Assembly: GCA_027483445.1 (NCBI GenBank)
Contig: JAIXUS010000008.1
Span: 60,487-124,486 of the forward strand
DNA: 64,000 bases
Direction of reading: 5' to 3'
DNA from: Bacteroidota bacterium
GTDB lineage: Bacteria; Bacteroidota; Bacteroidia; M30B66
The position numbers and the translations under genes are program-made. The notes under the pieces were generated by a model, which had not been told where the DNA came from, ran no database searches, and saw nothing but the letters and a program-made list of their open reading frames with translations. Positions 16,901 through 61,470 of the stretch are shown here, piece by piece; positions within the stretch are counted from its first letter, which is position 1; the number at the start of each line of letters is the position of its first letter.

Positions 16901-19900
16901 TACAGTCGATGGAATTCCGCCCACAGGCACCCAAACGTTGTTGAAGTAACGACCAGCGCGGTAGTTCGCTTCTGTACCGTTGAGAGCATCACCGGGGAAG
17001 TAGGAGTATTGGTGGTTATAGGTTGCTCCAGGTGAGAAGCCGCTGCTAATCACACTCCAATAGAATTCGAGCTCAAGATTCGCAGCATCGGTTGTGGCAG
17101 GGTGTTTAATGTTTACCGGCTTCGCCGTGATGACACCTGCAGTTGAATTACCTGAAATACTGTATTCGGCTGGAGTGTACTTTAAGGTTGTTCCGAAAGG
17201 GAAATTGAAACTCATTTCTCCTGCCGCAAATTGTTTTCTCACTCCGGCATCCGACACTACACCATTCAACCGAATCATCATGTTTGGATTGATGGCTCCT
17301 GTTGCATTGGCATTCGCTGCAAAATTCAGCAGGAAGTTATTGATGTATAAAATGCCCTGGCTGAAATTGAGGTTCTCGTTGATGGTGAGTGCGGCGGTAA
17401 GCTCGGCACCCACCGAATTGGAAAGACGGAGCTTATCGATTGTAGCCTGTCCATTGCCCTGTATCAATTGATTGGTTGTTCCTCCAAGAACGAGGTAACC
17501 ACTTTCAGAGAAAACGTCATGCTGGCTTTGCACGTTGCCCAACACAGTCATGTTGTTGTTGCCTAAACTCAGGTCGCCTGCCGTTAGCGTTAAACTCCCG
17601 TTTACCCTTACCTGAGTATTGTTTTGCAATTGGATCGTAGCGGTAGGGTTGGTATTATGGATAACTAGGTTGGCAAAATTGGTCAGGTTGTTCAATACAC
17701 CAGTAATGAGCTGGCTTGAAGTAGAACCATTCATTGTTGTAATTTGCCCACTTGTTCCGGGTTTAAATCCTCCCGCATTAAGACCAATGGCACTGCTGGT
17801 ATGGGTGTTGGTGAAGTTTCCTCCAATATTGACATCAAAACCATTTGCTCTAAATTCGGAATTACCCTCAATAAAAAAATTGTTTAACACGTTGAGGGCC
17901 GCATTGGTGTTATTCACGAATTTATTGGTTGTTTGGCCATCGATACGGATATTGTAAAAAGGACTCAGAGAATACAGGTTAAATGAAGAGTTGGAAGGAG
18001 TATTGGCTGTTCCAATTACGACTTCACCTCCGGTCATTGAGAAGCTTGAAGGCGTTAAATAAATATCACCGAAAAAGTTGGATGGCAATCCTGAGCGATC
18101 GAGAATGAGCAAAGCGTTTTCCGTCATAGAAAACGAAGAGCCCTGGTTGAGAATTTCGAATTTTGCCCTGTCGAGATTGAAAGAACTCGCTGTTTCAGGG
18201 TTTTTTCCGCGTACAAGCACAGTGCTGTTTCCCGACTGCGAGTACTGCACGCTTCCTTGAACAGAGAATGTGCTTCTTCTGAACTGTCCATTGATGTTGA
18301 GCACACCATTGTTGCGCACATCTACCGATGGAGTTCCTGCAGCGCTGTATTCAAGGTCGTTGTGAGCTGTATTGCTTGCGGCACCGATGTTTACTGTACC
18401 ATCGAGAATTTCCAGTTGCCCGGCTAAAACTACATCTGAACCATTTGAGTTGTGTTGGGTGAGGTTTAGAATTGCTGATGGGTGGTTTACCGAAAGCTTT
18501 GTGCGCGCAGGAATTGAAAAGCTAAGATTGCTTTCATTGTTGATAAGCAACGAAACTGCCTTCGAAACACGGAATGTTCCGTTCATCAGGTTTAACCAGC
18601 TGCTGTTTGGCACCTGAATGTTACCGGCCATGGTTAGGTTGGTAAGCAGGGAGGCATCATCGCCTTTGTTGATGTGCAGCTGGAAGAAACTGGCAACAGC
18701 AGAAGCGTTGCTGCCATCAATAACAGCGGCCGAGTTTCCGGTCATCTCAATAATCCACTTTGAACTCTCGTTGCAACGCAGGTTACCGTTGATGCTCAAA
18801 TTTCCGTGCAGTTGGATGCGGTGCGATACGCCTGAAGCATGTGTGGCATTAACTGTAGCATCTGGACCTACAGTCATATTGCCAGCAATGTTCAGGATTT
18901 GTGCAAATTCACTTCTCGCGCTAAGTCGTCCTCCACTAACATTAAGGTTTCCACGAATTGTTATGGCATGCGAGGTATTTTCGGCCAGTGAGGCTTCTGC
19001 AGAAGGGGAATTACTGGTGATAGTAAGATCTTCGAAAATGGTAAGGTCGCGACCGGGCATGATGATTCGGTTGTTACTGCCAGGATTAATAATCAGGTTC
19101 CGATAGCTTGGAATTTCCATCAATGTGGGCGAAGCTGTTTGTGCAGGAATTGTGAAATTGCTGCCAACAGTGTAATATTCAGCAGTTCCACCATCGGGCT
19201 GGAAAAAGAGTCCAAAGTCGCCAGCAGGGAATTGTGCCGTTGCAGTGCTAGACGAAATGCGGATTTTACCGGCTCCTCCTGCGGTAGAGTAGGGTAGAGC
19301 CCCAAAGTTATTGCCTTGTGTGGTGCCTAAATCGAGCGTTGAGCCGGCATTAATGAGCAATGAGCCGGCAAGGGTGTTGTTTTGTGTAACAGTAACTGTG
19401 TGGTTAAACATAGAGCCATCACCAATAAAAACAGGAACATTCGCATTGGGAATGCTGCTTGATGCCGTTCCATTATGTCCAATGTTTGACCATGTTGCCG
19501 AGCTGTTCCAGTTTCCGTTTGCGCGGCTGTAAAATGGCACAACTGTTCCAAACGCTGCAGGTATACCGGCTGTATAATCGCCTTCAAATTTGTTAAACGG
19601 GCTAAACTGGATATCGTTTGTGCTCTCATTCACCGCGTTAACGTTGTTTACTGTTGTGTAAGCTATTTCGGCGTAGTTGTAGTACCCTGGAATGTAAGCT
19701 GTATTATCGGGTAGGTTCCCATAATTGAAGGTGAGGTTTATGGAGTTTGCTGCAATGCCACTAAACCCGTTTTGGTTGAGTTTCCAATAGTATGAGAATG
19801 CATTGGGGTTGGTAACATACAATTGCTGCGCGTTAACAGGTCGAAGGTCAATAGTTCCTATTGTTGCAGGAGCAGTTGTAAATGCTACTGTAGCCGGAGT

Positions 19901-22900
19901 GTAGTTGGTGCCGGTACCGAATGGAAAGATGAAACTAAGAGCAGCCGGAGCATAGGTTTTTGCAATACCTCCATCGGAGAGGAATCCACGGGTTTTGATA
20001 AATCGGGTTGATGAAAATCCGCCAGCTCCGGCAGTAATGGTAGCGGTTGCATCGACCGTTAATCGGAAGTTTTGAATGTCGAAAACCCTTTCTGTGTTGA
20101 GGTTTAGGTTGGCGTTTACCCTAAATCCTGCCGTGGCAGCGGTTTGTACAGATCCAGTACTTCCACCTGAATTCGAGAGGGTTAGGTTCCGTATTTCACC
20201 GTCACCGTCACCGAAGATAGTTTGTAAGTTACTACCGCTCAAGTTAATGGCTGCGGTGCCTGTTCCATAAATTCGGGTGTTGTTTGTAACGTTCGCATCC
20301 ACATTCAGATTTTTATTGGCATGGTTGAGTTCACCCATATTCACCAATAAATTTCCTCGAATATTCAGCTGAGTTGCCGCTCCAGTAATCTGAAGTGTAC
20401 TATTTCCAGGCTTATCTAATACAAGTGAGTTTATCCCAGTATTTGTATTTGGCTGATAAGGGCTTGCAGTACTTCCGCTTTCAACTTTCATTCCCCACAC
20501 GTAAATACCCATTGCTGTGTTACCTACATATGAAGTTTGGCAGCTTCCATTACCTAGGGCGAGGCGCGCTTGGTATTGATTGCTACCATTTGATGTTGCG
20601 CTAATCCGATACCAACCATCGGCGAGGGCTGTAATTGAAGTACCCTGAATTCCGCCGGATGTTGAGGTTACACTGCCGCCGCCGGTAAGATTAAAGTTAG
20701 CAACGGCCACCGAAGCGCCTGGGCCAACCTGTAAAGAAACACAGTTCCTTCCGGCCGGTTTAACATGAATAGATACTGTTACCTGACCGCCAGCACTTGG
20801 TATTGTTGGTGTACTAAAGCGGTGAAGGCCGTTTTCGGTTGTTTCATTCAGGAGTTCGGCACTTTGTACTCCATTGGGTGAAATCCCCGAATTTTGAGTT
20901 GAAGTGAGACGTTCGAAGGAATAATTGGTTCCCGGTATAATTGCTTCAGGTCCATTAATCAAGCTAGATCCACCAGAACTCTCAAAAAGGGTAACACCAT
21001 TCAATGCGAAATTCTGTGTTGAATTACTGATAAATCGAATAGAGTTGTTCCCGGAAATGAGGGTAGAATTGGAATTGATATTCAAATTTCCGGCAATTAT
21101 CAGGTCCTGATCCATCGCATTCAAAGCAGGAGAATTGCTGCTTAAAATGGTTAGATCGTTTAAAATTGTTAAGTCCGACGCAGGTACGTTGGTGCGGGTT
21201 GCTTCAGAGCCTGTTATCGACCAGTCGACAGAATTCAATCGAACCTGTGCAGTTCCGGCAGTAGCTCTGCCAATGTTGACCGTATGCAAAGGCACAGTGG
21301 AGGTAACATCGAGGTGTATGTTTCCAGTTGTATTGAAGTTAACGGTACCACCACTCACCTCATAGTTTGCAGAAGTTGAGGCTACCATGAATCCCCCGTT
21401 TGGCGTAATACCGCCTGTTGAGGTTCGGGTGATTGTAATAGTGCCTCCCGACATTTTGAACACATTTTCGGGATATGGAAGCGAGAAAATTGAATAAAAG
21501 CTTTGCTCGGTACCCCCATTTCCAAGAAGATTAAGCGTTCCGGAAGTCATTTCGAAAGAACCCCTGTGGGTTGTTGCGGTTACCGAAGTTCTGATGATTC
21601 CGGCAACAACGGTACCACCAAAAATTTCAATTGCACCGGATTCACGGATCACAATAGCCTTTTGCCCGTTCTGACACGTAAATGTACCCGAAGTAATTCG
21701 AATTGTTCCGTAAGGAACTACTGCACCACCTAAACCACCATCGGTAATGTTTGCGCCATCAATCCATAAACGTGGAACCGCAGTGGGGCTTCCCAAATCG
21801 AAGTTTCCACCTCCACCTCCAATAAGCACGGGTATATTGATGTTTTCGCCAAAACGTAAAGTGCCATTTCCGTTGACCTGGAAAGTGTTTCCTCGATTTA
21901 CAAAAGAGACATTTGCCCCGGAAGCGGCAGCTACAAGAAGCTGAAAGCCGGTTGATTTCGTTGAGCTGAATCCATAAAATGTGGTGTTACTTCCTGCATT
22001 TAGCTGGATGCTTGTATTGGCATTACTACCCTGTATATTCAGGTTTGCAGCGCCATTTGTGGCATTGGCGTAATCGGCACTATTGGTAAAGTCAATGGTT
22101 CCGCTGCTGGTAAGGTTGCCATGAATATTAATCGTATGAACAGCATTGAAATTACCGGTTAGCCATGTGCATCCGCCACCTAAAGCAACATTGCGCATAA
22201 TGGTAATTGTTCGTGGGGTGGTTGAGTTGCCTACAACAAAAGTATTAGTGCCTGAACCGGTGCGGTCAAGGCTTAAGTTACCATTAATGGTGAGGTTATG
22301 ATTCAGAATCAGGCTCGTAGCTGTTGAAGTACTGTTCGTGTACTCGAGGTTGTTGTAAGTGTTTAGTGTACTATTCAACTCCAGTGGCGTTGCTCCAATG
22401 TTGTAGTATTCAATTGTTCCTCCTGTGGAACTCACGAATTGGGTGTAATTGCCGTTAGGCAGTGATGTGGATGACAACCGGAGTTTCCCTTCACCGCTGA
22501 TGGGACCAAATTGATGGCCTGAAGAGCTGCCTAAGTCGAGCACTCCGCCTTGTTGAATGGTAACTGAGCCAACTGTTGTTGCCGCAGCCATATTGTTTAC
22601 AGTACGGCCATTGAGGATTATTATTTGATCTCCGGCTTGAGGTACCATCGGGCTTACCAAGGTGTTGCCTGAAGGGTCGGTTGTCCAGGTGTTGGCTGAG
22701 TTCCAATCGCCCGATTGATATGAATACAAGGCTGAACGCATGGTTGGGTCGATGGCTGTCCACGAACCACTTAAGATGGTGGTACCGTTTGAGGTAAACG
22801 GATTAGAGCCCGGGGCGGAAGGAGAGTTTGGTATGATTAGATTATTGCCATCCCACAAGCGTGGAGAATACAGCGAAACCGAGCCAATTACTTCTTCAGG

Positions 22901-24598
22901 ATTGAAGTTGAAGCGAACGTTCGCGCTTATTCCTGACATGTTAACTGTTTCGATTAACCAGTGCTTTGTGAGCGCATTGTTGAAGTAGGGAATGTTTGGT
23001 TGGCGTGTAGGTGTGGCTTTAACGTAAAGATTGGCGGTTCCAACAAGTGTAGCAGTTAAAGATTGAAGGGTCATCGGCGAATAAAATCCACCGGATCCAA
23101 CGGGGTATAAGCCTGCACTCACCATGTCGGTAGTAAAGTCGGCGGTGCTTAGACCTTCTTTAATTAAAAAGCCTTCGCCATCGGTAATAAAATATCGTGT
23201 TGCGCTGAATGTACCCGAGAGAGAGCCTTGGGGTGCGATTTTCATGGAGTTATCGCCCAATGAAACGTAATAGCTTCCGGCGGCAGTTAGATTTACATTT
23301 CCGGCCGCTCTAATGGCTCCTCCTAAACTTTTTACTCCACTACCCGCGAAAAAAAGTGACTGGTAATTGGTGCTTGGAAAAACCTCCTGATCGCCCATTC
23401 TATTGTATTGCACCCGTGCCGAAACGTTGTCAGATTCAAGGCTTCCAATACTGTTGTGTTCTCCTCCCAGATTTAAGATGTGTGCCGCTCCATTCATGCG
23501 GATGGTTCCATTTCCCGAAAGGTCATCGTTAACGGTAACAGTTCTTGCCGCAGTGCCAAAGTTGAACACACCACCCGAAACTGTTAGTTTTCCTGTTGTG
23601 ATGTTATTGTTGAGAAGGCTTAAGCTTGAGCCGGCTTTGCTGATGATGATTTCTTCAAATGTTAATGCCGTATTCGTGGTGAGACTTGCTGCAAATGAGC
23701 CTGTAAATGTTTGAATTCCGGTTAGCACCAACGTTCCATTGGTTCTGATGAAATCGCCGGCTACTTCAATGGACGGAATCGTTTTTGTTCCTGCAGCGGT
23801 AAAGCTGATGTGGAAATAGCTTCCCGCTCGAATTTCCTGCGTCGAGCCTGCATATTCAACTGTATTTCCGGTGGCAGTTACATTAAATGTACCGGCCGAT
23901 TGCATGGGCTGGTTAGCTCCAAGGTACCGCAGTCGGACATTGGAAGCATTCAAAAAGGTAGAATTCACCGCAGTGCCATCCAACGAAACAGGAATTACCA
24001 ATCCACTCGAGTGCAAGCAGTTGTTAATGAGTGTTATATTTCCTTGGATAATGACATTGTCGATGGAAATTGAGCCGCTTCCGCTAAGTGTTTGAGAAGT
24101 GGTCGAGAAGCGAGCCGTGCTTGAAGCCGTTAACGCGATAATGCCACCATTTGAAATGCCATTGCGAAATTCCAGTTGAGCTTCAACGCCTGTGTTATTG
24201 TCTAATCGGCCTGATGATGAGATACTGACCGGTCCGCGGAAGACTTTTGGCTGGCCCACAGCAATCACTCTGAAAGTTCCGTTGATTGAGGTGGTGCTAT
24301 TTATTTGCACAGCTGATGCGCCAACCGATAAAGTTCTACTGGCGTTTATAGTAAGGTTGTTTATTTCGACGGCGGCATCAATTGTCATGTTGTGGTTAAT
24401 CACCACATTGTCGTTGGGGCCGGGTGTTCCTGCTGGAGTCCAGACCTGAGCTGACCACGCATTTGTTGAGGTGCTGGTATACGTTACCTGTGCTCCTGCC
24501 TTAAATGTCATACCTAGAATTAGAATAGGCAGAAGGAAAGTAATGGCCAGGGAAGGCGACTTTTTAAAGACGTTTATTAGAGTAGAATTTTGGATCAT
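13982..24598 (-). CDS. Giant (3538 aa) secreted surface protein with a T9SS C-terminal sorting domain, probably an adhesin
   Basis: It has a signal peptide. The body is extremely Asn/Thr/Ser/Gly-rich and beta-solenoid-like, with internally duplicated modules. The last roughly 80 aa contain the 'SPNPA...VDL...AGVYHLNI' T9SS CTD signature. Confidence 0.85.
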   Translation of the reverse strand: MIQNSTLINVFKKSPSLAITFLLPILILGMTFKAGAQVTYTSTSTNAWSAQVWTPAGTPGPNDNVVINHNMTIDAAVEINNLTINASRTLSVGASAVQINSTTSINGTFRVIAVGQPKVFRGPVSISSSGRLDNNTGVEAQLEFRNGISNGGIIALTASSTARFSTTSQTLSGSGSISIDNVIIQGNITLINNCLHSSGLVIPVSLDGTAVNSTFLNASNVRLRYLGANQPMQSAGTFNVTATGNTVEYAGSTQEIRAGSYFHISFTAAGTKTIPSIEVAGDFIRTNGTLVLTGIQTFTGSFAASLTTNTALTFEEIIISKAGSSLSLLNNNITTGKLTVSGGVFNFGTAARTVTVNDDLSGNGTIRMNGAAHILNLGGEHNSIGSLESDNVSARVQYNRMGDQEVFPSTNYQSLFFAGSGVKSLGGAIRAAGNVNLTAAGSYYVSLGDNSMKIAPQGSLSGTFSATRYFITDGEGFLIKEGLSTADFTTDMVSAGLYPVGSGGFYSPMTLQSLTATLVGTANLYVKATPTRQPNIPYFNNALTKHWLIETVNMSGISANVRFNFNPEEVIGSVSLYSPRLWDGNNLIIPNSPSAPGSNPFTSNGTTILSGSWTAIDPTMRSALYSYQSGDWNSANTWTTDPSGNTLVSPMVPQAGDQIIILNGRTVNNMAAATTVGSVTIQQGGVLDLGSSSGHQFGPISGEGKLRLSSTSLPNGNYTQFVSSTGGTIEYYNIGATPLELNSTLNTYNNLEYTNSTSTATSLILNHNLTINGNLSLDRTGSGTNTFVVGNSTTPRTITIMRNVALGGGCTWLTGNFNAVHTINIHGNLTSSGTIDFTNSADYANATNGAANLNIQGSNANTSIQLNAGSNTTFYGFSSTKSTGFQLLVAAASGANVSFVNRGNTFQVNGNGTLRFGENINIPVLIGGGGGNFDLGSPTAVPRLWIDGANITDGGLGGAVVPYGTIRITSGTFTCQNGQKAIVIRESGAIEIFGGTVVAGIIRTSVTATTHRGSFEMTSGTLNLLGNGGTEQSFYSIFSLPYPENVFKMSGGTITITRTSTGGITPNGGFMVASTSANYEVSGGTVNFNTTGNIHLDVTSTVPLHTVNIGRATAGTAQVRLNSVDWSITGSEATRTNVPASDLTILNDLTILSSNSPALNAMDQDLIIAGNLNINSNSTLISGNNSIRFISNSTQNFALNGVTLFESSGGSSLINGPEAIIPGTNYSFERLTSTQNSGISPNGVQSAELLNETTENGLHRFSTPTIPSAGGQVTVSIHVKPAGRNCVSLQVGPGASVAVANFNLTGGGSVTSTSGGIQGTSITALADGWYRISATSNGSNQYQARLALGNGSCQTSYVGNTAMGIYVWGMKVESGSTASPYQPNTNTGINSLVLDKPGNSTLQITGAATQLNIRGNLLVNMGELNHANKNLNVDANVTNNTRIYGTGTAAINLSGSNLQTIFGDGDGEIRNLTLSNSGGSTGSVQTAATAGFRVNANLNLNTERVFDIQNFRLTVDATATITAGAGGFSSTRFIKTRGFLSDGGIAKTYAPAALSFIFPFGTGTNYTPATVAFTTAPATIGTIDLRPVNAQQLYVTNPNAFSYYWKLNQNGFSGIAANSINLTFNYGNLPDNTAYIPGYYNYAEIAYTTVNNVNAVNESTNDIQFSPFNKFEGDYTAGIPAAFGTVVPFYSRANGNWNSSATWSNIGHNGTASSSIPNANVPVFIGDGSMFNHTVTVTQNNTLAGSLLINAGSTLDLGTTQGNNFGALPYSTAGGAGKIRISSSTATAQFPAGDFGLFFQPDGGTAEYYTVGSNFTIPAQTASPTLMEIPSYRNLIINPGSNNRIIMPGRDLTIFEDLTITSNSPSAEASLAENTSHAITIRGNLNVSGGRLSARSEFAQILNIAGNMTVGPDATVNATHASGVSHRIQLHGNLSINGNLRCNESSKWIIEMTGNSAAVIDGSNASAVASFFQLHINKGDDASLLTNLTMAGNIQVPNSSWLNLMNGTFRVSKAVSLLINNESNLSFSIPARTKLSVNHPSAILNLTQHNSNGSDVVLAGQLEILDGTVNIGAASNTAHNDLEYSAAGTPSVDVRNNGVLNINGQFRRSTFSVQGSVQYSQSGNSTVLVRGKNPETASSFNLDRAKFEILNQGSSFSMTENALLILDRSGLPSNFFGDIYLTPSSFSMTGGEVVIGTANTPSNSSFNLYSLSPFYNIRIDGQTTNKFVNNTNAALNVLNNFFIEGNSEFRANGFDVNIGGNFTNTHTSSAIGLNAGGFKPGTSGQITTMNGSTSSQLITGVLNNLTNFANLVIHNTNPTATIQLQNNTQVRVNGSLTLTAGDLSLGNNNMTVLGNVQSQHDVFSESGYLVLGGTTNQLIQGNGQATIDKLRLSNSVGAELTAALTINENLNFSQGILYINNFLLNFAANANATGAINPNMMIRLNGVVSDAGVRKQFAAGEMSFNFPFGTTLKYTPAEYSISGNSTAGVITAKPVNIKHPATTDAANLELEFYWSVISSGFSPGATYNHQYSYFPGDALNGTEANYRAGRYFNNVWVPVGGIPSTVNAATDRITLSAVNYLNGDFTAGESTEFGIIQTYFSRNATSGGNWNDLNAWSTDITLQHDGPPATVAPSGKNIVIASGHTITVTDNNKNAPTSVLHGNLVLGNTFGHNFGVVSGTGLVRITPTPSNTFIFPGGNYNAFVSSVGGTFEYSSNSSATLPVQTVYNHLTFSGSGVKTLPAADLIINGNVLISAGQVSNTFNRQMQIKGNWTNLVGLGGFIPGGLGIVELNGTNQTLSGATNFTTLRIVNGGVKELTASMNVLHLNLMQGLVQTNANELIIGLSGTVVGGSSSSYVHGNLRKRLQSATSAVNFEVGDENLYAPVAISFSGTIGNGGSLMASTSAGDHPDMYLSGINSQKSVNRTWTLSAQSLLGFSSYTARFNFNANDLDPSANPLSFRTSRLLGGLWTMNGSNTGQPLFTETTGLTAFGLFQAGEAVEGLIWTGNVNTNWNLAGNWQPNEVPDMNDDVTIGLVANQPSIHSGSNGICRDLSMASGVIINIPATHNLSVFGNIQSQGGATQGNGAMIINNSSSTLSGDFISGTNLNILTGSGLSLNNDASLEIQRDLNVGGQLSLNGRPVTLSGTQVSRLMGQPSTFTNLTINKAASDLALFLATPITVLGNLNLLSGDVELNGNSIQLSTTGTVINENSENRIQGSSGTITAQRVLNNISDMNVAGLGATLTCANNMGLTTVVRGHQQQTYNAGFGINRYYEIHPTNNSNLNATLKFNYFDNELITPLGTIAENELDLWRFDGAYWNVQWATLDATNNQLVKSNIAEFSTWTGGSRENNALPIKLATFEAECLGEQYLVRWSTASEANNRLFELEESEDALSWKKVYAIEGAGNSNTTRSYEATLKPGGSKGSYLRLRQTDFNGNFEIFDPVFVSCKQFTTNTLQLSPNPASAFVDLQLNADQATKANISIFSTAGQLLLSAPIEISEGRSSIRLDINDLPAGVYHLNISNDKRIEFEGSRSIIKR

Positions 24599-24936: not shown

Positions 24937-25536
24937 TTATTGATTTTGAACTAAAAGTCGTGTGTTGAAGGTATCTTCTCCTCGCTGAACGCAAAGCAAA
25001 TATATTCCGTCTGTTAATGAGGAGACGTCTAATACAGGCTCGCTTTGGTTGTCAATTTTTGGTGAAAAACGACGTCCATCCGGAGCATACAAATAGTAAA
25101 GGACTTCTTTTGGGTTCCAGTTGTTGGGAAGGAGGATTTTAGATAATCGTTGGGTTGGATTAGGAAAAACTTGTAATTGTTGAGTTTGATTAAATACTGT
25201 AACGGCTAATGTATCGCTGTAAATAGTTCCGTTTTCAACAATTCTAAAATACCACTGTCCTGGGTCAGCGTTTGTTTGGGACCAACTGTAGCTTAATTCC
25301 TCATCTGTGCTACCGCAGATTCCTGCATACCTGAAAATCTCGTAAAATTGGATTAAATCGTTGGAGGCCTGAATTGTTAAATCCGAGCAGGTGCTCCCTT
25401 TTGCGGTAACCCAAGAGTGCAGAATAACAGGTTGGTTGTAGGAAGCTTCGTATCTGATGACCGTTGCTTGCGCATGAATTTTTGCCTGAAATTGAAGGCA
25501 GCAAACAAGCAAAGTGAATCCCAGCGATTTTATCAT
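24937..25536 (-). CDS. Small secreted protein with a T9SS C-terminal domain
   Basis: It has a signal peptide and a C-terminal 'VFPNPTQ...DGIYLLCVQ' Por-secretion CTD motif. Its start overlaps the upstream stop by 1 nt (TAATG). Confidence 0.65.
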   Translation of the reverse strand: MIKSLGFTLLVCCLQFQAKIHAQATVIRYEASYNQPVILHSWVTAKGSTCSDLTIQASNDLIQFYEIFRYAGICGSTDEELSYSWSQTNADPGQWYFRIVENGTIYSDTLAVTVFNQTQQLQVFPNPTQRLSKILLPNNWNPKEVLYYLYAPDGRRFSPKIDNQSEPVLDVSSLTDGIYLLCVQRGEDTFNTRLLVQNQ

Positions 25537-28861: not shown

Positions 28862-30250
28862 ATGGAAAACAGAAGAGTCCATCTGAAAAAGCTCATGCTA
28901 GGGGCTCCCCTGGCAGTTTCATCGCTGGGTTGGCTGAGTAACTGTAAAAAAGAAGATTTGCTGGACGGAGCGAATTTTTCAGGTAAAGTATTGATAGTTG
29001 GTGCAGGTGCTTCTGGGGTGTATGCGGCTGAATTGCTCATCCGCAAGGGCATAGATGTACAAATTCTTGAAGCTTCTTCAAAGGCTGGAGGGCGCATTCA
29101 GTCGGCCGATATTCCCGGCGTTGGTAGCGTAGAGTTAGGGGCAGAATTTATTCATGGTAGCCGCTCAGTTTTTTACGATATGGCTCTCAGTCAAGGTGCA
29201 GATTCACTCATTCTTGATGAAGGCGATGACCTGTTTTGGCTTGAAAACCAGATTCGAAACGAACAGTATATGAGAGAGAGTCCGACCCTAAACGGTGGAG
29301 GGCAAACACTTTTTCAAATTATCGAAAGTTTAGGCAGCTTTCCGGGTGGAGATCAAAGTTTGTTGCAGTATTTAACTGATTTTCCTTTGGAACCACCGCT
29401 TCTTCCTATTGCCAATGCGCTTATAGCTAATGATTATGGCTCTGACCTTGCCAGTATTGGAATGTTTGCACTGCGCGATGCTGAAGCAGGATTTAGTTCA
29501 GGTTCAGAGAATTATCGTCTTAAGCAAAGTATTTGGTCGTTGTTCGAAAAGAGATGCCCTAAAGCATTAAGTAAGATTAGCAATAATCAAGAAGTGCGCA
29601 AGATAAGCTATGGGGCGGCCGGAGTTACAGTTGAAACTTCGAATGGGGAAGTTTACAGTGCCGACCGTGTTCTTGTAACTGTGCCCTTGACCATGCTTAA
29701 GGCCAATCGAATAGAATTTACACCACCATTACCGATTGAAAAGCAGAATGCCATCAACACTATTGAAATGGACGGAGGAAGCAAGTATTTCATGCGTTTT
29801 ACCGGGCCATTCTGGCCTGATGGCACATCGTCAATCATTGGTGGTCAAGTAATCCCCGAATATTGGGTGATACCAGACAAGGATTTGAACGAGGCTGCCG
29901 GTTTAACTGCTTTTGTCACAGGGCCTTTACAGGCACAACTTAGAGTACTTTCTGAAGCCGAGCAGCGAAGCTTAATTTTGGGAGAGTTATCTGCTATGTT
30001 TCCAGGCGAAAGTGTATCTTCATCTCTTACGTCATTTTATGTAAAAGACTGGTCTAGCGAGCCATTTATTGAAGGTGCATATTCATACCCTTCGCTGTTA
30101 TCTGCTGGTCAGCGAGTGCCTCTATCTCTACCTGTAGATAATCTTGTGTTTTTTGCCGGTGAGGCTACGAATTTTAATGGACATCAAGGCACGGTGCATG
30201 GCGCAATGGAGTCAAGTTATAGAGCAGTACTTGAAATATTGAAGTCATGA
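28862..30250 (+). CDS. Flavin-containing amine oxidase family oxidoreductase, exported
   Basis: It has a 'VLIVGAGASGVYAA' Rossmann dinucleotide fold and 'EAS..AGGRI' typical of the amine oxidase family. The N-terminal signal/lipobox-like 'LSNCKK' is also present. Confidence 0.7.
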   Translation: MENRRVHLKKLMLGAPLAVSSLGWLSNCKKEDLLDGANFSGKVLIVGAGASGVYAAELLIRKGIDVQILEASSKAGGRIQSADIPGVGSVELGAEFIHGSRSVFYDMALSQGADSLILDEGDDLFWLENQIRNEQYMRESPTLNGGGQTLFQIIESLGSFPGGDQSLLQYLTDFPLEPPLLPIANALIANDYGSDLASIGMFALRDAEAGFSSGSENYRLKQSIWSLFEKRCPKALSKISNNQEVRKISYGAAGVTVETSNGEVYSADRVLVTVPLTMLKANRIEFTPPLPIEKQNAINTIEMDGGSKYFMRFTGPFWPDGTSSIIGGQVIPEYWVIPDKDLNEAAGLTAFVTGPLQAQLRVLSEAEQRSLILGELSAMFPGESVSSSLTSFYVKDWSSEPFIEGAYSYPSLLSAGQRVPLSLPVDNLVFFAGEATNFNGHQGTVHGAMESSYRAVLEILKS

Positions 30251-31005
30251 AAATTCGATTCATTGTTTCCATTCTACTATTTGGAGCTTCCATTTTGAAT
30301 GGTCAGAACCACTGGGATTTCATGGGCGGCCTTCAAAGCATGAATCCTAAGGCCTGGAACAGAACAATTCAAGCATACAATTTTAGTAGGGTTTGGCAAA
30401 ATGAACCTATGCCTGAGCTTCGTTCGGCAATGATTGCCGGCCTCGGATTTAATGGAGTATTGCTTAAAGGAGTCTATATAAGTCCACAGCTTCAATATGG
30501 CTCCTTTCGGTCTCTTGTGGAGCAAGAATCCATAAACACTTTGCTTAGGTTAAGATGGGCAAGTGGCATCATAGCGTTCGATTTGTTTCCATTGGAGTTT
30601 GGTCTTGATACTGTTCGATATCGTTTTAGACCTTTTGTTCGCCTTGGTGCTGGGGCTTCTTTGGTTATGCCTCGCTTTTTACAAAACGACAGTTTGGTAT
30701 CTGTAAATGGAACCATTTGGCAACCTATGGTTTGGCCGTTTTTTTCCTATGCTGCTGTTGGGATTCGTGTTAGTCTAAATCATTCACTAGGAATAGTTTT
30801 ATTGGCATCCCATCATTTTTTTCCCGAAGTTCGATTGCCCGATTACACAACAGCAGTGCATGGAACTGCGTTGCCTTCTTTAAAAGACAAGGATAAAATC
30901 CATCAATGGAATGTTCAGTTTGGATTTTCTCTACGTTTGCATCCCACCGAAGAGGATGACGACAAGAAGGAAGAAGATAAAAAGCTAAAAAGACGGCGGT
31001 TTTGA
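30247..31005 (+). CDS. Hypothetical secreted or outer-membrane protein
   Basis: It has a signal peptide, an aromatic-rich beta-strand-like body and a charged KE-rich tail. Its start overlaps the upstream stop by 4 nt. Confidence 0.45.
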   Translation: MKIRFIVSILLFGASILNGQNHWDFMGGLQSMNPKAWNRTIQAYNFSRVWQNEPMPELRSAMIAGLGFNGVLLKGVYISPQLQYGSFRSLVEQESINTLLRLRWASGIIAFDLFPLEFGLDTVRYRFRPFVRLGAGASLVMPRFLQNDSLVSVNGTIWQPMVWPFFSYAAVGIRVSLNHSLGIVLLASHHFFPEVRLPDYTTAVHGTALPSLKDKDKIHQWNVQFGFSLRLHPTEEDDDKKEEDKKLKRRRF

Positions 31006-31015
31006 ACACATAATA

Positions 31016-31378
31016 TTGACCAACATGTTTAACTTAAAGATGAAATCCGTGAAAACCCTCATTTTATCGTTACTTGGAGTAGCTGTTTTCCAGACAGTTG
31101 TGGTTGCTCAATCCAGCGGAACTGTAAAACAACAACCAGCCCCCGCGGCTAAGGTTTCCAGCGGATCGGCCAAACAAAATTTGCCTTCCGTTAAGCCCTC
31201 TAATCCAACACCGGTAAAAAGTAACCAGCCCAAAGGCAAGGCTACTCAAACTAAACCGGCCTTTAAGCCAGTGAGTTCCTCCAAGCCAAATTCTGGATCA
31301 GGCAATAAGGTTAAAAAGGACGGAACTTCCGATATGCGTTACAAAGACAACAAGCAATCGGCCCCAAAAGCAAAGTAA
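31016..31378 (+). CDS. Lys/Pro/Ser-rich low-complexity secreted protein
   Basis: A signal peptide is followed by 'KPSNPTPVKSNQPKGK'-type repeats. Confidence 0.45.
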   Translation: MTNMFNLKMKSVKTLILSLLGVAVFQTVVVAQSSGTVKQQPAPAAKVSSGSAKQNLPSVKPSNPTPVKSNQPKGKATQTKPAFKPVSSSKPNSGSGNKVKKDGTSDMRYKDNKQSAPKAK

Positions 31379-31525
31379 TCCAAGCAAGGCGATTCTTGGA
31401 GTTCTAATCTACCCAAAATCATCATTACGAAGTAAAGCGTTCGTCTGAACTGACTAAGATATTCTTAATGATTGGTTCGCCTTAATTCATTACACGAGTA
31501 GTGAATAACAATTTGTACAAACCTA

Positions 31526-31578
31526 AATGTGTGTTGCCTAATGTATTGGCCAAACTTAGGCAACACATTAGGCGTTTT
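31526..31578 (+). terminator. Strong 16-bp hairpin with a downstream T-run (candidate terminator or regulatory stem-loop)
   Basis: aatgtgtgttgcctaa-[14 nt loop]-ttaggcaacacatt is followed by aggcgtttt. Confidence 0.4.
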
Positions 31579-31974
31579 GAATTTGGCAGGCATCAAAGCT
31601 GTTTGAATGCGGTTGCATACTGATTAAAAGTTATAGGAATCGAAGCAATACGACCATTGCATCATTATCAAATTCGCCATTTCGCAGTTTTTGTGCTGAA
31701 TTGGGGCTGATTGTCCTCGCTTTTTGTTGGTATTCAGGCTATTAATCCCAGGTTTAATACGAGTCTGAACAAATGCTTATTCAAACGATTTCATGAAGCC
31801 TGTGCCTGCCTGTTTTGCTTCTTTCTGCTAGGAAAATTCCAAAATACAGAATTCGCACAGCTGAATTGTATGCGCTGTATTTCAGGCTTTTCAGCACGCT
31901 TACAATTTAGTCGATGGGTGTTAACCTATCTGAATTCGAATCTTTAAGCATGATGACCGAATTTGCTAAATCAG

Positions 31975-32116
31975 TTCAGCGTATTGACTGAATTAGATTA
32001 AAAATCGTCAGTTAACTGACTGAATTTAATTAAAACCAGTCAGTGTAATGACGATATTTGATTAAAAAACGTCAGTTAACTGACTGAATTTTATTGAATA
32101 TCGTCAGTTGCTGGAG
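31975..32116. promoter_or_regulatory. Array of four phased GTCAG...TGAC palindromic sites (two tandem 64-bp units) immediately upstream of the DUF4143 ATPase gene
   Basis: The 14-bp perfect palindrome GTCAGTTAACTGAC occurs at 32007 and 32071. Variant sites lie at 32039 (GTCAGTGTAATGAC) and 32103 (half-site GTCAGTTG), giving an exact 32-bp spacing within conserved 'gattaaaaa.c' contexts. Confidence 0.7.
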
Positions 32117-32137
32117 ATTTATGTGTAATTTTGGGTT

Positions 32138-33277
32138 GTGGAAATTACAAGAGCTATCGAAGATAGATTTCGTAAAGTACTTAGGCCCAATAAGGTAGTA
32201 TTGTTGTTGGGGGCTAGACGGACTGGAAAGACCTGGTTTCTCAAGACGGTGATACCAGGATTAGGGATGCCCTATCTTTTTTTAAACGGCGATGATGCAG
32301 CCGTTAGGAAGGTATTTGAAGAGCAAACGCTTTCCGGCTTTAGAAGTTTGGTTGGCAAAAACACACTTTTAGTTATTGATGAGGCACATCGGATTCCAGA
32401 AGTAGGTTGGGGGCTTAAGTTGATGGTAGATGAAATACCAGGTTTACACATTGTAGCTACTGGATCTTCAGTTTTTGATCTAAAAAACATTACCGGAGAG
32501 CCTTTAACAGGCCGAAAATCAGAGCTCTATCTTTACCCATTCGCACAAATGGAGCTCTCGACGCGCGAGAACTTTGCCGAGACCCGATCTGAATTAGCAG
32601 AGAGGCTCGTTTTTGGAACCTACCCTGAATTACTTCATCTAAAAAGCTTAAACGATAAGGCTGATTATTTGCGTGATATGGTTTCATCTTACCTGTTTAA
32701 GGACATCCTTGAATTTGATGGGGTAAGAAATTCAGGAAAGATTCAGGATTTGCTGCGCTTAATTGCCTTTCAGCCCGGTAAGGAAGTTTCAATGGATGAG
32801 CTAAGTAAGCATCTTGGGCTAAGCAAAAACACTGTTGACCGCTACCTTATGCTTCTTCAGAAGGTATTCATACTCCAAAAGTTACCCGGATTTAGCAGGA
32901 ATTTACGCAAGGAAGTTACTCGTCATTCCCGCTATTATTTTATCGATAATGGCGTTCGTAATGCCTTGATTAACAACTTTAATCCCATTCCCTTACGAAA
33001 TGATGTTGGTGAGTTGTGGGAAAGCTACCTGATTATGGAGCGGGTAAAGTATCAATCATATACGAACCTTTACTCGTTAAACTACTTTTGGAGGACCTAT
33101 CAGCAGCAGGAAATCGATTTTATTGAAGACCGTGAGGGGAAACTATATGCTTACGAATTCAAATGGAATATGGATAAAAAGTCCAAGATTCCATCTGCCT
33201 GGAAAGAGGCATATCCAGATTCGGAATTCAATACGATTGATCCAAGCAACTACTTGTTTTGGATTGATAAAGTATGA
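32138..33277 (+). CDS. AAA+ ATPase with a C-terminal DUF4143 domain (AAA_14 family)
   Basis: Walker A 'LLGARRTGKTW' and Walker B 'LLVIDEAH' are present. The C-terminal region is conserved in the archaeal/bacterial DUF4143 ATPases. A GTG start is inferred. Confidence 0.75.
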   Translation: MEITRAIEDRFRKVLRPNKVVLLLGARRTGKTWFLKTVIPGLGMPYLFLNGDDAAVRKVFEEQTLSGFRSLVGKNTLLVIDEAHRIPEVGWGLKLMVDEIPGLHIVATGSSVFDLKNITGEPLTGRKSELYLYPFAQMELSTRENFAETRSELAERLVFGTYPELLHLKSLNDKADYLRDMVSSYLFKDILEFDGVRNSGKIQDLLRLIAFQPGKEVSMDELSKHLGLSKNTVDRYLMLLQKVFILQKLPGFSRNLRKEVTRHSRYYFIDNGVRNALINNFNPIPLRNDVGELWESYLIMERVKYQSYTNLYSLNYFWRTYQQQEIDFIEDREGKLYAYEFKWNMDKKSKIPSAWKEAYPDSEFNTIDPSNYLFWIDKV

Positions 33278-33394
33278 GTTACTTCCTGTGTTATAGCGAG
33301 TTGAGCAACACTTGAAATAGGAGGTTTATCGTTTTTTGAGGAGGAGTCGGTAATGCGTTTTTCGGGAATGGTAATTTTCGGTGAATCTTTAAAT

Positions 33395-34621
33395 CTACCA
33401 CTGGGTTGCAGCGATCAGTAGGTCAAGGTCTTTATATGGAATATTGTATGTTTCCCCGATGTACTTATGGGTGAGCATTCCATTATATAAGTAAACTCCA
33501 TTTCTAACGCCGGGACTTTGGCGTAGGTAGTTTTCAAGTCCACCTTTTCCTCCCATTTCTAATAAAATAGGGGTGAATATGTTGCTTAAAGCAATAGATG
33601 CCGTTTGTGCTACTCTTGATGCTACATTTGGCACACAATAATGAACCACACCATACTTTCTAAAAACGGGATTCTCATGATTCGTCACTTGTGATGTTTC
33701 AAAACAACCGCCTTGATCAATCGATATATCTACGATTACAGATCCAAATTTCATGTTACTTACCATGTCTTCTGTAACCACAACAGGGGTTCTCCCTTCT
33801 TTTGCTCGAAGCGCTCCAATCACAACATCGGCGGTGGATAGTGCCTTTTCCAGCTCAACAGGTTCAATAATTGAGGTGAACAATCTCATTCCAAGATCAT
33901 TTTGAAGTCGACGGAGGCGATAAAGGCTGTTGTCGAAAATCTTTACGGTTGCTCCCAGACCCACAGCCGCTCTTGCAGAAAATTCACCAACAGTTCCTGC
34001 TCCAATAATAACCACCTCAGTTGGAGGTACGCCGGAAATTCCTCCAAGCATCATCCCTCTCCCTCCATTGGTTGTGCTCATATATTCAGAGGCTACCAGT
34101 ATGGCTGTATTTCCAGCAATTTCGCTCATTGCACGAACAATCGGGTAAATGCCAGAGCGATCTTTGATGAAGTCGAATGCTAAACCAGTGATTTTCTTTG
34201 AAATGAGATGATTGAAAAAGTTTTTTTGTTGAACGGTGAGTTGTAATGCAGAAATAAGACATTGCTTATAACTCATCATTTCAATTTCTTCGAAGGTTGG
34301 AGGGGCTACCTTCAATACAATATCGGCCTTGTAAACCTGTTCCGTATTGTAGGCTATTTGTGCCCCGGCTTCACTGTAGTCTTTGTCCTGGAAATTTGAA
34401 TGCAGCCCTGCTCCAGTTTCAACCATAACATTATGGCCATTGTTCACAAGAACTGCAACTGCAGCAGGCACCAGAGAAACCCTTCTTTCTTGAAACGAGG
34501 TTTCTTTCGGGATACCAATATGCAAACGTGCAGTGCCTCTGGCAACTTCGAGCATCTCTTCCTGCGGAAGCAATCCACCCTGTGTTGCCATGCGAATCAG
34601 GGGATTAGGGTCGTTAGTCAT
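33395..34621 (-). CDS. ald: Alanine dehydrogenase / PNT-family NAD(H)-dependent dehydrogenase
   Basis: It has 'IGIPKE' and the 'VVIIGAGTVG' NAD-binding fold. There are about 20-30 extra N-terminal residues, so the true start may be an internal Met at 34591 or 34555. Confidence 0.7.
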   Translation of the reverse strand: MTNDPNPLIRMATQGGLLPQEEMLEVARGTARLHIGIPKETSFQERRVSLVPAAVAVLVNNGHNVMVETGAGLHSNFQDKDYSEAGAQIAYNTEQVYKADIVLKVAPPTFEEIEMMSYKQCLISALQLTVQQKNFFNHLISKKITGLAFDFIKDRSGIYPIVRAMSEIAGNTAILVASEYMSTTNGGRGMMLGGISGVPPTEVVIIGAGTVGEFSARAAVGLGATVKIFDNSLYRLRRLQNDLGMRLFTSIIEPVELEKALSTADVVIGALRAKEGRTPVVVTEDMVSNMKFGSVIVDISIDQGGCFETSQVTNHENPVFRKYGVVHYCVPNVASRVAQTASIALSNIFTPILLEMGGKGGLENYLRQSPGVRNGVYLYNGMLTHKYIGETYNIPYKDLDLLIAATQW

Positions 34622-34656
34622 TCGTTGTTTTGAACAAGGGACGATAAAGATAGGGC

Positions 34657-35085
34657 TTAGTCGATAACTTCGGCGCTTACTTTACGACCGTCTTCCAACA
34701 GTTGAATGTGAATTTTTACATACCGATCTGGTAATAAGCCGGGTGCAACAGATGGCCACTCAATAAAACAGTAATTTCCGCTGTAGATTAGCTCGTCTAG
34801 TCCAGCTTCGAAACCTTCCTCTTCATGCTTTAAGCGGTAAAAATCAAAATGATACACGGTTTGCAACTGCTGGGTTGTATACTGATTTACCAAGGCATAC
34901 GTTGGGGATTGAACGACATCCCTGCTCCCAAGAGCTTTTACCAATGCTGCAATGGTGGTCGTTTTTCCAGAACCCATCTCTCCTTCTAGGGCGAACACTT
35001 TTTGTTTAGAAAAGTATTTCCAGAATTCTTTGGCAAATGAATCTATTGCTTTTAAATCAGGAATTATATACTCAAATACAGCCAT
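34657..35085 (-). CDS. tsaE: tRNA threonylcarbamoyladenosine biosynthesis protein TsaE
   Basis: The size of 142 aa and the P-loop 'GEMGSGKTT' are typical of YjeE/TsaE. Confidence 0.85.
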   Translation of the reverse strand: MAVFEYIIPDLKAIDSFAKEFWKYFSKQKVFALEGEMGSGKTTTIAALVKALGSRDVVQSPTYALVNQYTTQQLQTVYHFDFYRLKHEEEGFEAGLDELIYSGNYCFIEWPSVAPGLLPDRYVKIHIQLLEDGRKVSAEVID

Positions 35086-44071: not shown

Positions 44072-44144
44072 GCCGAAGTAGCTCAGCTGGTAGAGCAGCT
44101 GATTTGTAATCAGCTGGTCGGGGGTTCGAGTCCCTTCTTCGGCT
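44072..44144 (+). tRNA. tRNA-Thr (anticodon TGT)
   Basis: A manual cloverleaf was drawn with acceptor gccgaag/cttcggc, anticodon loop ttTGTaa and T-loop ttcgagt. No CCA is encoded. Confidence 0.85.
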
Positions 44145-44176
44145 CTGTTCTTTGTAGTACTTAGTACAAGGAGGTT

Positions 44177-44262
44177 GGGGAGATAGCCAAGTGGCCAACG
44201 GCAACAGACTGTAAATCTGTCCTCTTCGGAGTTCGCAGGTTCGAATCCTGCTCTCCCCACCA
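44177..44262 (+). tRNA. tRNA-Tyr (anticodon GTA), long variable arm, CCA encoded
   Basis: Acceptor ggggaga/tctcccc, anticodon loop ctGTAaa, a long variable arm and a 3' CCA were identified. Confidence 0.85.
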
Positions 44263-44310
44263 CGAAAAAAACGGTTGGAGCTGCACTTGCCGTTGCAGCG
44301 ACAACTAAAA

Positions 44311-44386
44311 GCGGAAGTAGCTCATTTGGTAGAGCATCAGCCTTCCAAGCTGAGGGTGGCCGGTTCGAGCCCGGTCTTCCGCTCCA
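44311..44386 (+). tRNA. tRNA-Gly (anticodon TCC), CCA encoded
   Basis: Acceptor gcggaag/cttccgc, anticodon loop ctTCCaa and T-loop ttcgagc were identified. Confidence 0.85.
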
Positions 44387-44408
44387 ATTTGGTTCTTTTG
44401 AACCAGAA

Positions 44409-44480
<72 letters not shown>

Positions 44481-44539
44481 CAACCACAGCAACATCAATT
44501 AACACACACACTCAAACAAATCAAAAACAAACACTAGCC

Positions 44540-45727: not shown

Positions 45728-45831
45728 TCTGCTTAAACTCATCATTAAAAGGTGCATCGACCCTTATACGGTCGTGCACCTTTTCAAAGTGTATAGCCCT
45801 CCCTTCTTTCTGAAGGCTTGAAAACAAACAC

Positions 45832-45904
45832 ACGGGTGTAGCTCAATTGGTAGAGTGGCGGTCTCCAAAACCGTAGGTTGTAGGTTCGAGCCCTGCCATC
45901 CGTG
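45832..45904 (+). tRNA. tRNA-Trp (anticodon CCA)
   Basis: Acceptor acgggtg/catccgt has one G·U pair, with anticodon loop ctCCAaa. It has the canonical position between tuf and secE. Confidence 0.8.
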
Positions 45905-45918
45905 CAAATCTGACGACC

Positions 45919-61032: not shown

Positions 61033-61470
61033 ATGTTTGAAGGAGTAATCAACAATAACAGGTTAACGAAAATGGAGGCGAATCGGATATCCGAATCCAG
61101 TCAGGACAACTGGGTGTTTTTCGATGGTGGATGTGCCATGTGTAGCGGTTCTGTTCGTTTCGTGAAAAAGCATTTGGCCAGCCCTGTTTTTCGTTTTGAG
61201 GCCTTGGATTCCAACTTTACGCGGGAGTTTTTAGATGCTCATCCTTTTCCGGGAACCGTCCCGGATGCGATTTTAGTCTATTCCAACGGATCTTGGTCTG
61301 AAGGTCCGGAGGCCTTATTTGTTATTGTACGCAAGATGCGTTGGTATTTTCGATGGCTTGGCGTGTTTCGATTCACTCCTCGGTTTATGCAAACGGGCCT
61401 TTATCGATTTATTGCACGCAACCGCATTCGTTGGTTTGGAAAATCGAATATAAGTTGTGCTCATGAGTAA
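61033..61470 (+). CDS. Thiol-disulfide oxidoreductase, DCC family (DUF393)
   Basis: It has the 'FFDGGCAMCSG' DCC motif. Confidence 0.75.
   Translation: MFEGVINNNRLTKMEANRISESSQDNWVFFDGGCAMCSGSVRFVKKHLASPVFRFEALDSNFTREFLDAHPFPGTVPDAILVYSNGSWSEGPEALFVIVRKMRWYFRWLGVFRFTPRFMQTGLYRFIARNRIRWFGKSNISCAHE

Follow-up and report, generated by a model that had tools for sequence, protein, structure and literature searches.

A predicted phased self-operator with a one-residue specificity rule upstream of DUF4143 ATPase-nuclease genes

In a contig of a Bacteroidota bacterium (JAIXUS010000008.1), the gene-free gap in front of a DUF4143 gene ends in a phased array of short inverted arms, and this array is probably the cognate DNA-binding site (self-operator) of the AAA+ ATPase-nuclease encoded directly downstream. 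The gene (32138-33277, forward strand, GTG start) encodes a 379-aa protein with AAA_14, winged helix-turn-helix (wHTH) and DUF4143 (PD-(D/E)xK) domains and belongs to the AAA_14 + DUF4143 family (COG1373) that PADLOC names PDC-S01. All positions are coordinates in the 64,000-nt stretch that was analyzed, which we call the window; names beginning with L and P denote fetched homologous loci and their proteins, respectively. Comparative evidence shows the architecture of the array, its family-wide association with the gene and covariation between protein and DNA. Together, gene and site appear to form a self-operator design that is shared across the family, has not been described before and follows a readable specificity rule.

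Architecture of the array

The array (31954-32122) consists of ten 10-nt arms and one degenerate arm (32113-32122). The arms have the consensus wAATTcnGTCA, strictly alternate in orientation and are flanked on both sides by 6-nt spacers, giving an arm pitch of 16 bp and an array period of 32 bp. Reverse arms start at 31954, 31985, 32017, 32049 and 32081, and forward arms start at 31969, 32001, 32033, 32065 and 32097. Where two arms meet head to head they form a site, and neither these sites nor the array as a whole is assigned to a strand. Two of them are perfect 14-bp palindromes, GTCA-GTTAAC-TGAC, at 32007-32020 and 32071-32084. A third has the sequence GTCA-GTGTAA-TGAC (32039-32052), and a weaker hybrid site, TTCA-GCGTAT-TGAC, lies at 31975-31988. 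The last, promoter-proximal forward arm (AATATCGTCA, 32097-32106) spans -41 to -32 relative to the start codon and lacks a conserved partner arm; the next 6 nt include a TTG at the expected -33 position.

The original prediction, made from the letters of the window alone, described tandem repeats carrying four sites at 32-bp spacing. Three of these are full sites, but the one at 32103 is a left half only (GTCA GTTGCT GGAG) whose right half is unconserved in relatives. The tandem repeats themselves are real according to Tandem Repeats Finder, which reports 3.9 copies of a 32-bp period (78% matches, 31985-32109) and, with a higher score, 2.0 copies of a 64-bp period (86% matches, 31968-32095); a repeat search likewise returns four in-register copies with start-to-start distances of 32, 32 and 32 bp. 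The array nevertheless begins further upstream than had been claimed, at 31954, and its unit is the alternating 10-nt arm with 6-nt spacers instead of a 14-bp palindrome with a linker.

The perfect palindrome GTCAGTTAACTGAC does occur twice, as had been noted, at 32007 and 32071, and a search for more copies found none beyond the array within the 64-kb window. With up to two mismatches it has three matches compared to 0.15 expected, and three were reached in none of 100 shuffles. The GTCA-N6-TGAC pattern is found three times in the window (32007, 32039 and 32071), each time within the array. A 22-mer, CGTCAGTTAACTGACTGAATTT, is identical at 32005-32026 and 32069-32090, 64 bp apart, which suggests a recent 64-bp duplication or conversion within the array in the window lineage. 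Arrays of relatives do not show the 64-bp pattern.

Two other kinds of repeat structure were considered and rejected. The 32-bp units abut without unique spacers and no cas genes are nearby, which rules out a CRISPR array. A transposon end with transposase sites is also ruled out, because the 64 kb contain no second copy of the motif, no transposase gene and no significant flanking repeat.

Conservation across the family

Four genus lineages (the window; L001 with L161-163; L164; and L165/166) share the same synteny and have DUF4143 proteins that are 89-94% identical to that of the window. Each has an array of 5 to 6 pairs whose register with the start codon is perfect, and the ~170 bp concerned are free of indels. 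Pairwise identity among these arrays is 1.0 at arm position 1, 0.85 at position 2 and 0.85-0.95 at positions 7-10, and it falls to 0.45-0.67 at arm positions 3-6 and in the spacers. Upstream of the array, the sequence is unalignable even with the closest relative. Given this in-register conservation next to unalignable sequence, the array is the conserved element, and the remainder of the 760-bp region is variable filler. The same arrangement recurs in a different context in another Bacteroidota metagenome-assembled genome (MAG; L027), where the gene for a 50%-identical homologue is preceded by three GTCA-N6-TGAC sites 32 bp apart, then by TATATTTG, 4 nt and a GTG.

Ten aligned homologues, used to scan metagenomes, yielded 80 loci with proteins 49-75% identical. 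The best autocorrelation lag is 32 in 49/74 nonredundant upstream regions compared to 0/74 in-gene windows and 3/74 shuffles, and an arm10-N6-arm10 palindrome (at least 9/10 matches) is present in 41/74 loci compared to 4/74 shuffled ones. Successive sites are exactly 32 bp apart in 31 of 35 cases. Across the 1.84 Mb of fetched DNA, 38 of the 39 exact-site pairs with a 32-bp separation are located within 400 bp upstream of a DUF4143 gene, and the remaining pair belongs to a duplicate of such an array that immediately follows a DUF4143 gene. Among the 354 open reading frames (ORFs) within 3 kb of these genes, the largest recurrent family is present in three loci only.

Plasmid-borne homologues of lower identity show related designs with other sequences. 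A Trichlorobacter homologue (53% identical) has one pair before its ATG, those of Treponema (41%) and B. uniformis (40%) each have two 32-bp units, and an Agrobacterium homologue (29%) has a 10-N6-10 palindrome that abuts the ATG. L116 encodes a second, 23%-identical paralogue, for which no recognizable 10-N6-10 site was found. Where the promoter is of the sigma70 type, the pair is located between the -10 box and the ATG with its left arm overlapping the TATAAT-like box, and an extra arm often occurs in the -35/-10 spacer. A single inverted pair starts exactly at -23 from the ATG in 11 of these loci. Judged from its placement on these promoters, the pair would occupy a repressor position.

Covariation between the recognition helix and the arms

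The half-site varies between loci, and the arms agree within each locus. Residue 230 of the protein is K in 39 of 39 loci with GTCA arms and R (nine) or T (one) in all ten loci with TTCA arms. It is the sole perfectly discriminating column of the ~380 in the alignment; the next best scores 0.72. If every site is counted, K-type loci have 70 GTCA and 14 TTCA sites, and R-type loci have 23 TTCA and 2 GTCA sites. Rarer variants of the recognition helix accompany still other half-sites: SKET is found with GGAGA, DIKT with GTGGA, HKNT with GGGCA, SGNT with GGCTCA and NQ[KR]T with GT[TC]GTA. On a neighbor-joining tree computed without the helix-turn-helix (HTH) columns, at least nine switches between R and non-R are needed, and the pattern at residue 230 is therefore not the marker of a single clade.

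For a prospective test, five further loci were picked by residue 230 alone. The rule was cleanly right in four of the five, and the fifth, with the R-type protein P0074, has a hybrid TTCA/TGAC site. Four TTCA sites at 32 bp occur with P0113 and two TTCA sites with P0053, both of which have R at this position, and the K-type proteins P0103 and P0013 are associated with two GTCA sites and with GTCA, respectively.

Of the candidates for reading the arms, the DUF4143 protein's own HTH is by far the most likely, given the covariation with the recognition helix, the exclusive association with the gene and the lack of any other conserved neighbor. The original prediction had seen in the repeats an operator array to which a dimeric DNA-binding protein would attach, with the DUF4143 ATPase as a possible candidate, and this idea gains support from an array that follows homologues into unrelated contexts, where no other neighbor is conserved and the half-site covaries with the recognition helix. 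It had also pointed to the nuclease-like C-terminal domain as the DNA binder, in place of which the central wHTH (residues ~199-268) is the likely reader.

Several points weigh against a self-operator. A clear site is missing in 13 of 71 loci, and no clear site was found for a Thermus homologue (26% identical). The R-type locus P0074/L084 has a hybrid TTCA/TGAC site. Gene and promoter are co-inherited, so linkage alone predicts some covariation, and the neighbor-joining tree is rough and may inflate the number of independent switches. The arms of the window lie upstream of the -7 box and only the last one is over the -33 region, an arrangement that would suit an activator as well. No binding or expression data for family members were found in the literature searched, and the search for further sites in this genome covers 64 kb only.

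The DUF4143 protein

Pfam recognizes AAA_14 (82.8 bits, cut-off 27) and DUF4143 (131.9 bits, cut-off 28.1) in the 379-aa protein, and the PADLOC PDC-S01 profile PDLC04789 aligns residues 1-376 with profile positions 1-373 of 375 (E = 2.3e-148). No NCBIfam model matches it. The Walker A motif GARRTGKT (G25-x4-G30-K31-T32), the Walker B motif VIDEA (D81-E82) and the nuclease motif D327/E340-x-K342 do not vary across 36 sequences. The PD-(D/E)XK superfamily includes DUF4143 (PMC3424549).

An AlphaFold2 model (pLDDT 85.9, pTM 0.87) consists of an AAA+ module, a winged HTH and an alpha/beta C-terminal domain in that order. The winged HTH (residues 199-268, coding region 32732-32941 on the forward strand) is delimited from this model, Pfam and the covariation. 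It has helices at 199-210, 219-226 and 230-242 and a wing at 246-249/265-268, and Pfam adds weak matches to HTH_11 and HTH_IclR at residues 204-243. Residue K230 is the first, N-terminal residue of helix 3, the recognition helix (residues 230-242), and a check of the translation places its codon at 32825-32827. Among solved structures, a search by sequence gave only a marginal match to the archaeal ATPase 2fna. The best results of a fold search were ORC/Cdc6 and RuvB, which are generic AAA+ plus winged-helix proteins, with TM scores of about 0.3.

PADLOC-based surveys rank PDC-S01 fourth in frequency among the 'defence systems' of prokaryotes (PMC12988326) and place it first among single loci in rumen genomes (PMC13356809). 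PDCs are candidates chosen by 'guilt by embedding', some of whose members are embedded in known defence loci. The gene in the window sits among housekeeping genes. The literature searched contained no description of a DNA site or of regulation for the DUF4143/PDC-S01 family.

A model for binding and autoregulation

We infer physical binding, the assignment of helix and wing, the sign of regulation, cooperativity and ATP dependence from the comparative patterns. One winged HTH would bind each 10-nt arm, with the recognition helix (S229-K230-N231-T232...) contacting GTCA through the major groove. At the other end of the arm, AATT is 6 bp, or half a turn, away from GTCA and would present the adjacent minor groove on the same face, where it could suit the wing. 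Arms that face each other across 6 nt place the GTCA and TGAC tetramers 10 bp apart, a classical arrangement for HTH dimers, and may allow a dimer to bind one face of the helix. If so, the 32-bp period of about three turns would bring successive dimers onto the same face, and four to five dimers could be in contact, probably via their AAA+ domains and probably in a manner that depends on nucleotide state.

The array abuts and overlaps the -33 region of the gene's own promoter, and the pair in sigma70-type relatives covers the -10 box, the transcription start and the 5' untranslated region. Occupancy would thus most likely repress the adjacent gene. Such cooperative negative autoregulation could keep a potentially toxic nuclease at a low level, and a leaderless GTG start may limit its expression further.

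Comparison with known systems

The nearest architectural analogue of the array is the site of NrdR, a nucleotide-controlled tetramer whose two 16-bp boxes are partially palindromic and flank a linker of 15-16 bp that is constrained in its length but not its sequence (PMC13584703). The centers of these boxes are 31-32 bp, or about three turns, apart in the regulated promoter (PMC13584703). NrdR boxes as such are ruled out, since the downstream gene does not encode a ribonucleotide reductase and the sequence is unlike the published boxes (PMC13584703). NrdR also combines a zinc ribbon with an ATP-cone, regulates ribonucleotide reductase genes and not itself, and uses two boxes, compared to up to five here. 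Bacteria share a conserved consensus for the NrdR box; the half-site of the array, by contrast, changes with each paralogue.

DnaA and archaeal Orc1/Cdc6 are AAA+ ATPases fused to an HTH or winged helix that have multiple phased sites beside their own genes and undergo nucleotide-controlled oligomerization. The DUF4143 protein resembles them in its AAA+ and winged-helix domains, in the phased sites next to its gene and in having ORC/Cdc6 and RuvB as best fold matches. The fold similarity is weak, however, and the DUF4143 protein has an extra C-terminal PD-(D/E)xK domain. The array also lacks signs of an origin, and it is built from alternating inverted arms instead of asymmetric 9-mers or ORB elements.

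Plasmid Rep initiators are winged-helix proteins whose dimers autorepress via inverted repeats over their own promoters, and their sites diverge rapidly and are plasmid specific. They differ in that the window has no replicon, direct iterons or origin, and the DUF4143 protein belongs to an unrelated family with ATPase and nuclease domains. The element in the window belongs to none of these groups (NrdR, DnaA, Orc1/Cdc6 or plasmid Rep). Repressors of the BrxR/CapW type (wHTH-WYL) use a winged helix on inverted repeats in the promoter of a defence locus to keep the locus at a low level until it is triggered. These are encoded by separate regulator genes, whereas here the DNA-binding domain is contained within the presumed effector and faces a phased array for multiple dimers.

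Alternative explanations

The best of the alternatives, though an unlikely one, is that the DUF4143 protein binds the array mainly for purposes other than transcription. The array could be a platform for assembly or storage (a 'holster' or a filament nucleation site), or it could be a cis site for cutting or recombination of a mobile cassette. Gene and array do form a solitary module in many unrelated contexts, the nuclease motif is invariant, and the four to five sites in the window exceed the needs of simple repression. Direct repeats of 26-83 bp also bracket 11 of 64 family genes compared to 5 of 113 control genes (Fisher p = 0.006), which hints at cassette-like behavior. The repeat-flanked DUF4143 loci are L082, L084, L086, L088, L094, L096, L116, L121, L136, L143 and L146 (also L102, L111, L154 and L178).

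In three cases the downstream repeat is a second operator array located 8-23 nt past the stop codon, such that two arrays bracket the gene: L136 (1523-1605 and 2779-2857), L082 (309-368 and 1561-1620) and L084/L174 (L174:~2165-2200). The second copy is 88-96% identical in L136 and L082, with the promoter included in both, and no gene on the same strand follows it in L136. Four of the five control positives were scanned with Pfam. They proved to be a DUF4143 paralogue (L116:6629-7780), two solitary 'defence-like' genes (SoFic, L092:6733-7833; and a YhcG/DUF1016 nuclease, L157:2060-3097) and a short-chain dehydrogenase with only a 17-bp repeat. Solitary 'defence-like' genes may share a cassette-type insertion signature.

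Against a platform or cassette, the arms keep a fixed distance to the -10 or -7 box and the start codon with both promoter types, which argues for a promoter function. Some of the flanking repeats are generic genome repeats or segments of repeat proteins (L086 Rhs/YD, L116 and L121). Neither the window nor its relatives show a significant flanking repeat, and no empty site was found for comparison. In L086, the DUF4143 cassette lies between coding segments (3778-3844 and 5319-5373) that look Rhs/YD-repeat-like by eye, and its 'direct repeat' is repeat-protein coding sequence. Other repeats resemble duplicated ends of neighboring genes (L146 and L096) or generic hairpins like repetitive extragenic palindromes (L121 and L111).

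In the window and three relatives, the sole match in a search for flanking repeats was the 10-bp GAATCTTTAA, which is at chance level (E = 0.27). Its copies at 31938-31947, 6 nt before the first arm, and 33383-33392, 2 nt before the stop codon of the alanine dehydrogenase gene (ald), bracket the array and the gene. A search for an empty site with the exact Ald protein returned only contigs that also carry the DUF4143 gene. In the genus- and family-level relatives L002-L011 (Ald 74-88% identical), the gene after ald differs in every lineage and is never a DUF4143 gene; the 3' side of ald is a synteny breakpoint. No insertion boundary can be drawn, because the genus-level relatives (Ald 81-88%) carry a different gene after ald in each lineage.

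A bolder proposal, which we regard as quite unlikely, is that DUF4143/PDC-S01 genes are autonomous cassettes with a 'programmable', fast-evolving specificity in which residue 230 reads arm position 7. The array would then be the site of an ATP-dependent filament and of cutting or recombination by the PD-(D/E)xK domain. If true, this would explain the bracketing by two arrays or long repeats and the wide spread of the family, whose abundance would reflect selfish spread or a new sequence-addressed immunity and not conventional defence.

It is very improbable that the palindromes are operators of a host factor encoded elsewhere, such as a Crp/Fnr-type dimer, for which the DUF4143 gene is one target. 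The nGTCA-N6-TGACn site does have the half-site geometry that we take to be typical of CRP/FNR sites, two 4-5 bp half-sites 10 bp apart (5-N6-5), and a 195-aa cNMP-binding protein is encoded at 61457-62044 (forward strand). This protein is the sole Crp-like one among the ORFs scanned and is 29 kb from the array, so the neighboring Crp-family proteins of the original prediction are not neighbors, and the covariation argues against any host regulator. Unlike CRP/FNR sites, the array has a different half-site sequence and a 32-bp period and is private to one gene, with the motif nowhere else in the 64 kb. Its half-site changes from locus to locus with the adjacent recognition helix, which is not the pattern of a shared regulator, and it follows the gene across phyla and onto plasmids.

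An origin-like element with iterons is hardly credible, and so is an integrated element whose remnant or boundary this would be; an origin and an element remnant were among the original suggestions. Phased repeats beside an AAA+ plus winged-helix protein with a fold like ORC/Cdc6 and RuvB, gyrB 3.5 kb away and the variable upstream sequence of close relatives would fit such an element. However, the arms alternate and are not direct iterons, and many relatives have, instead of a true array, just one pair located between the -10 box and the ATG. The 20 DnaA boxes found compare to 15.3 expected, with none between 30141 and 33169, and no GC-skew switch occurs across the window. There is no rep, integrase, transposase or tRNA gene within 12 kb, and a comparison of the flanks for a tRNA or att-like boundary, which had been suggested with the original prediction, yielded no such boundary and no significant flanking repeat.

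A function of the repeats as RNA, whether as a structured leader, a small RNA or a CRISPR-like transcript, is barely plausible: the alternating inverted arms could form long hairpins, and a permissive Rfam scan of 31300-32250 gave weak, below-threshold matches to hairpin (miRNA precursor) models, but at gathering thresholds no family matches the region and only five tRNAs are found at 44-46 kb, the array is upstream of a -7 box 4 nt from the start codon and so probably outside the mRNA, the conservation of arm positions 1-2 and 7-10 tracks a protein residue and not base-pairing, and unique spacers and cas genes are absent.

Promoter and non-coding stretch

A Bacteroidota-type -7 box, TAATTTTG (32126-32133, forward strand, -12 to -5), is located 3 nt after the end of the array and 4 nt before the GTG. 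It fits TAnnTTTG, which we take to be the consensus for this element, with TTG as that of the -33 element; promoters were predicted from consensus only. Both the box and the 4-nt distance are kept in L161 (TAGTTTTG), L164 (TAAATTTG), L165 (TAGATTTG), L027 and L081 (TATTTTTG). So short a gap between box and start implies that the mRNA would be leaderless or nearly leaderless. The GTG start itself is supported by the aligned N-termini of homologues and by L164 and L165, which have an ATG in its place. At -41 to -32, the last arm covers the predicted -33 region, and the array thus overlaps the predicted core promoter. A scan for sigma70 promoters and terminators gave nothing informative, as expected for Bacteroidota, and flagged the array palindromes as 'terminator-like'.

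The gene-free gap (31380-32137) is 758 bp long. In none of its six frames do more than 78 codons follow one another without a stop; this longest run (31711-31947, TTG start) has no Pfam match and no similarity to any related locus, and the claim that the gap holds no credible ORF is thus borne out. Its description as AT-rich holds only modestly, at 34-40% GC compared to 41-48% in the flanks. Between the Lys-rich protein gene and the array is a lineage-specific, unconserved non-coding stretch (31379-31953, no strand assigned). When its 574 bp (31379-31952) were compared with 173 fetched loci and with the remaining window sequence, nothing similar was found apart from its own hairpin. Measured from the upstream stop codon, the DUF4143 gene starts after ~350 bp in L165 and ~565 bp in L161, compared to 758 bp in the window. 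In L164, the equivalent of window positions ~31400-31950 contains a gene (2182-3690) for a 502-aa type IX secretion system (T9SS) cargo protein with a Por_Secre_tail domain; 310 bp separate this gene from the DUF4143 gene. A tblastn test for a pseudogene found no trace of this gene in the intergenic region of the window. The DNA that separates the array from the Lys-rich gene is a hotspot for indels.

This stretch includes a stem-loop (31529-31568, forward strand) that may be an intrinsic terminator of the upstream gene (31016-31378). The hairpin that had been noted near 31526-31569 is real: it has a perfect 12-bp stem (31530-31541/31556-31567) that extends to ~15 pairs, with dG -22.4 kcal/mol and z = -2.1. 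It is 150 nt past the upstream stop codon and has a weak U tract (tail GCGUUUUGAAUUUGG). The consensus terminator scan does not list it, and it is unconserved in relatives.

Gene neighborhood and other features of the window

The window is a piece of chromosome from a freshwater Bacteroidota MAG. The gap is preceded by gyrB (reverse strand), an amine oxidase gene, a gene for a 252-aa protein and the gene for a Lys/Pro-rich 120-aa protein that ends at 31378 (all three forward). After the DUF4143 gene come ald, tsaE and a PorX-like response regulator gene (all reverse), followed by lpxD, lpxC/fabZ and lpxA. An identical 379-aa protein is recorded in GCA_041447055.1, and the closest relative at species level is a 'Bacteroidetes bacterium' MAG (CANHCM010000022, L001). 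Compared with L001, the region 28862-35085 is a mosaic in which Ald (99.8% identical), GyrB (98.9%) and PorX (98.3%) are close to identical and the amine oxidase (84.6%), the 252-aa protein (82%), the Lys-rich protein (55%), the DUF4143 protein (93%) and TsaE (81%) are divergent. This pattern points to a segment that may be recombination prone or fast evolving within a near-identical chromosome region.

Elsewhere in the window, a 3538-aa ORF (13982-24598, reverse strand) probably encodes a surface protein of giant size that is secreted by the T9SS. The next ORF (199 aa, 24937-25536) specifies a product for which a weak match to Por_Secre_tail is on record. A tRNA cluster at 44072-45905 (Thr-Tyr-Gly-Thr, then Trp) flanks a 395-aa ORF (44540-45727) and is unrelated to the array. 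Presumably, this is the common tRNA-tuf arrangement.

Implications

The predicted site, wAATTcn[G/T]TCA in a 10-N6-10 arrangement with a 32-bp period, would be the first concrete molecular property for the PDC-S01 family. To this the analysis adds a predicted reading head, the wHTH, and a one-residue rule that pairs K230 with G and R230 with T. Private operators for each copy suggest a possible reason why paralogues can coexist. The site may also provide a handle for de-repressing PDC-S01 genes in functional screens, and a phased array for up to five dimers of an AAA+ protein would be an attractive system for the study of nucleotide-controlled assembly on DNA.

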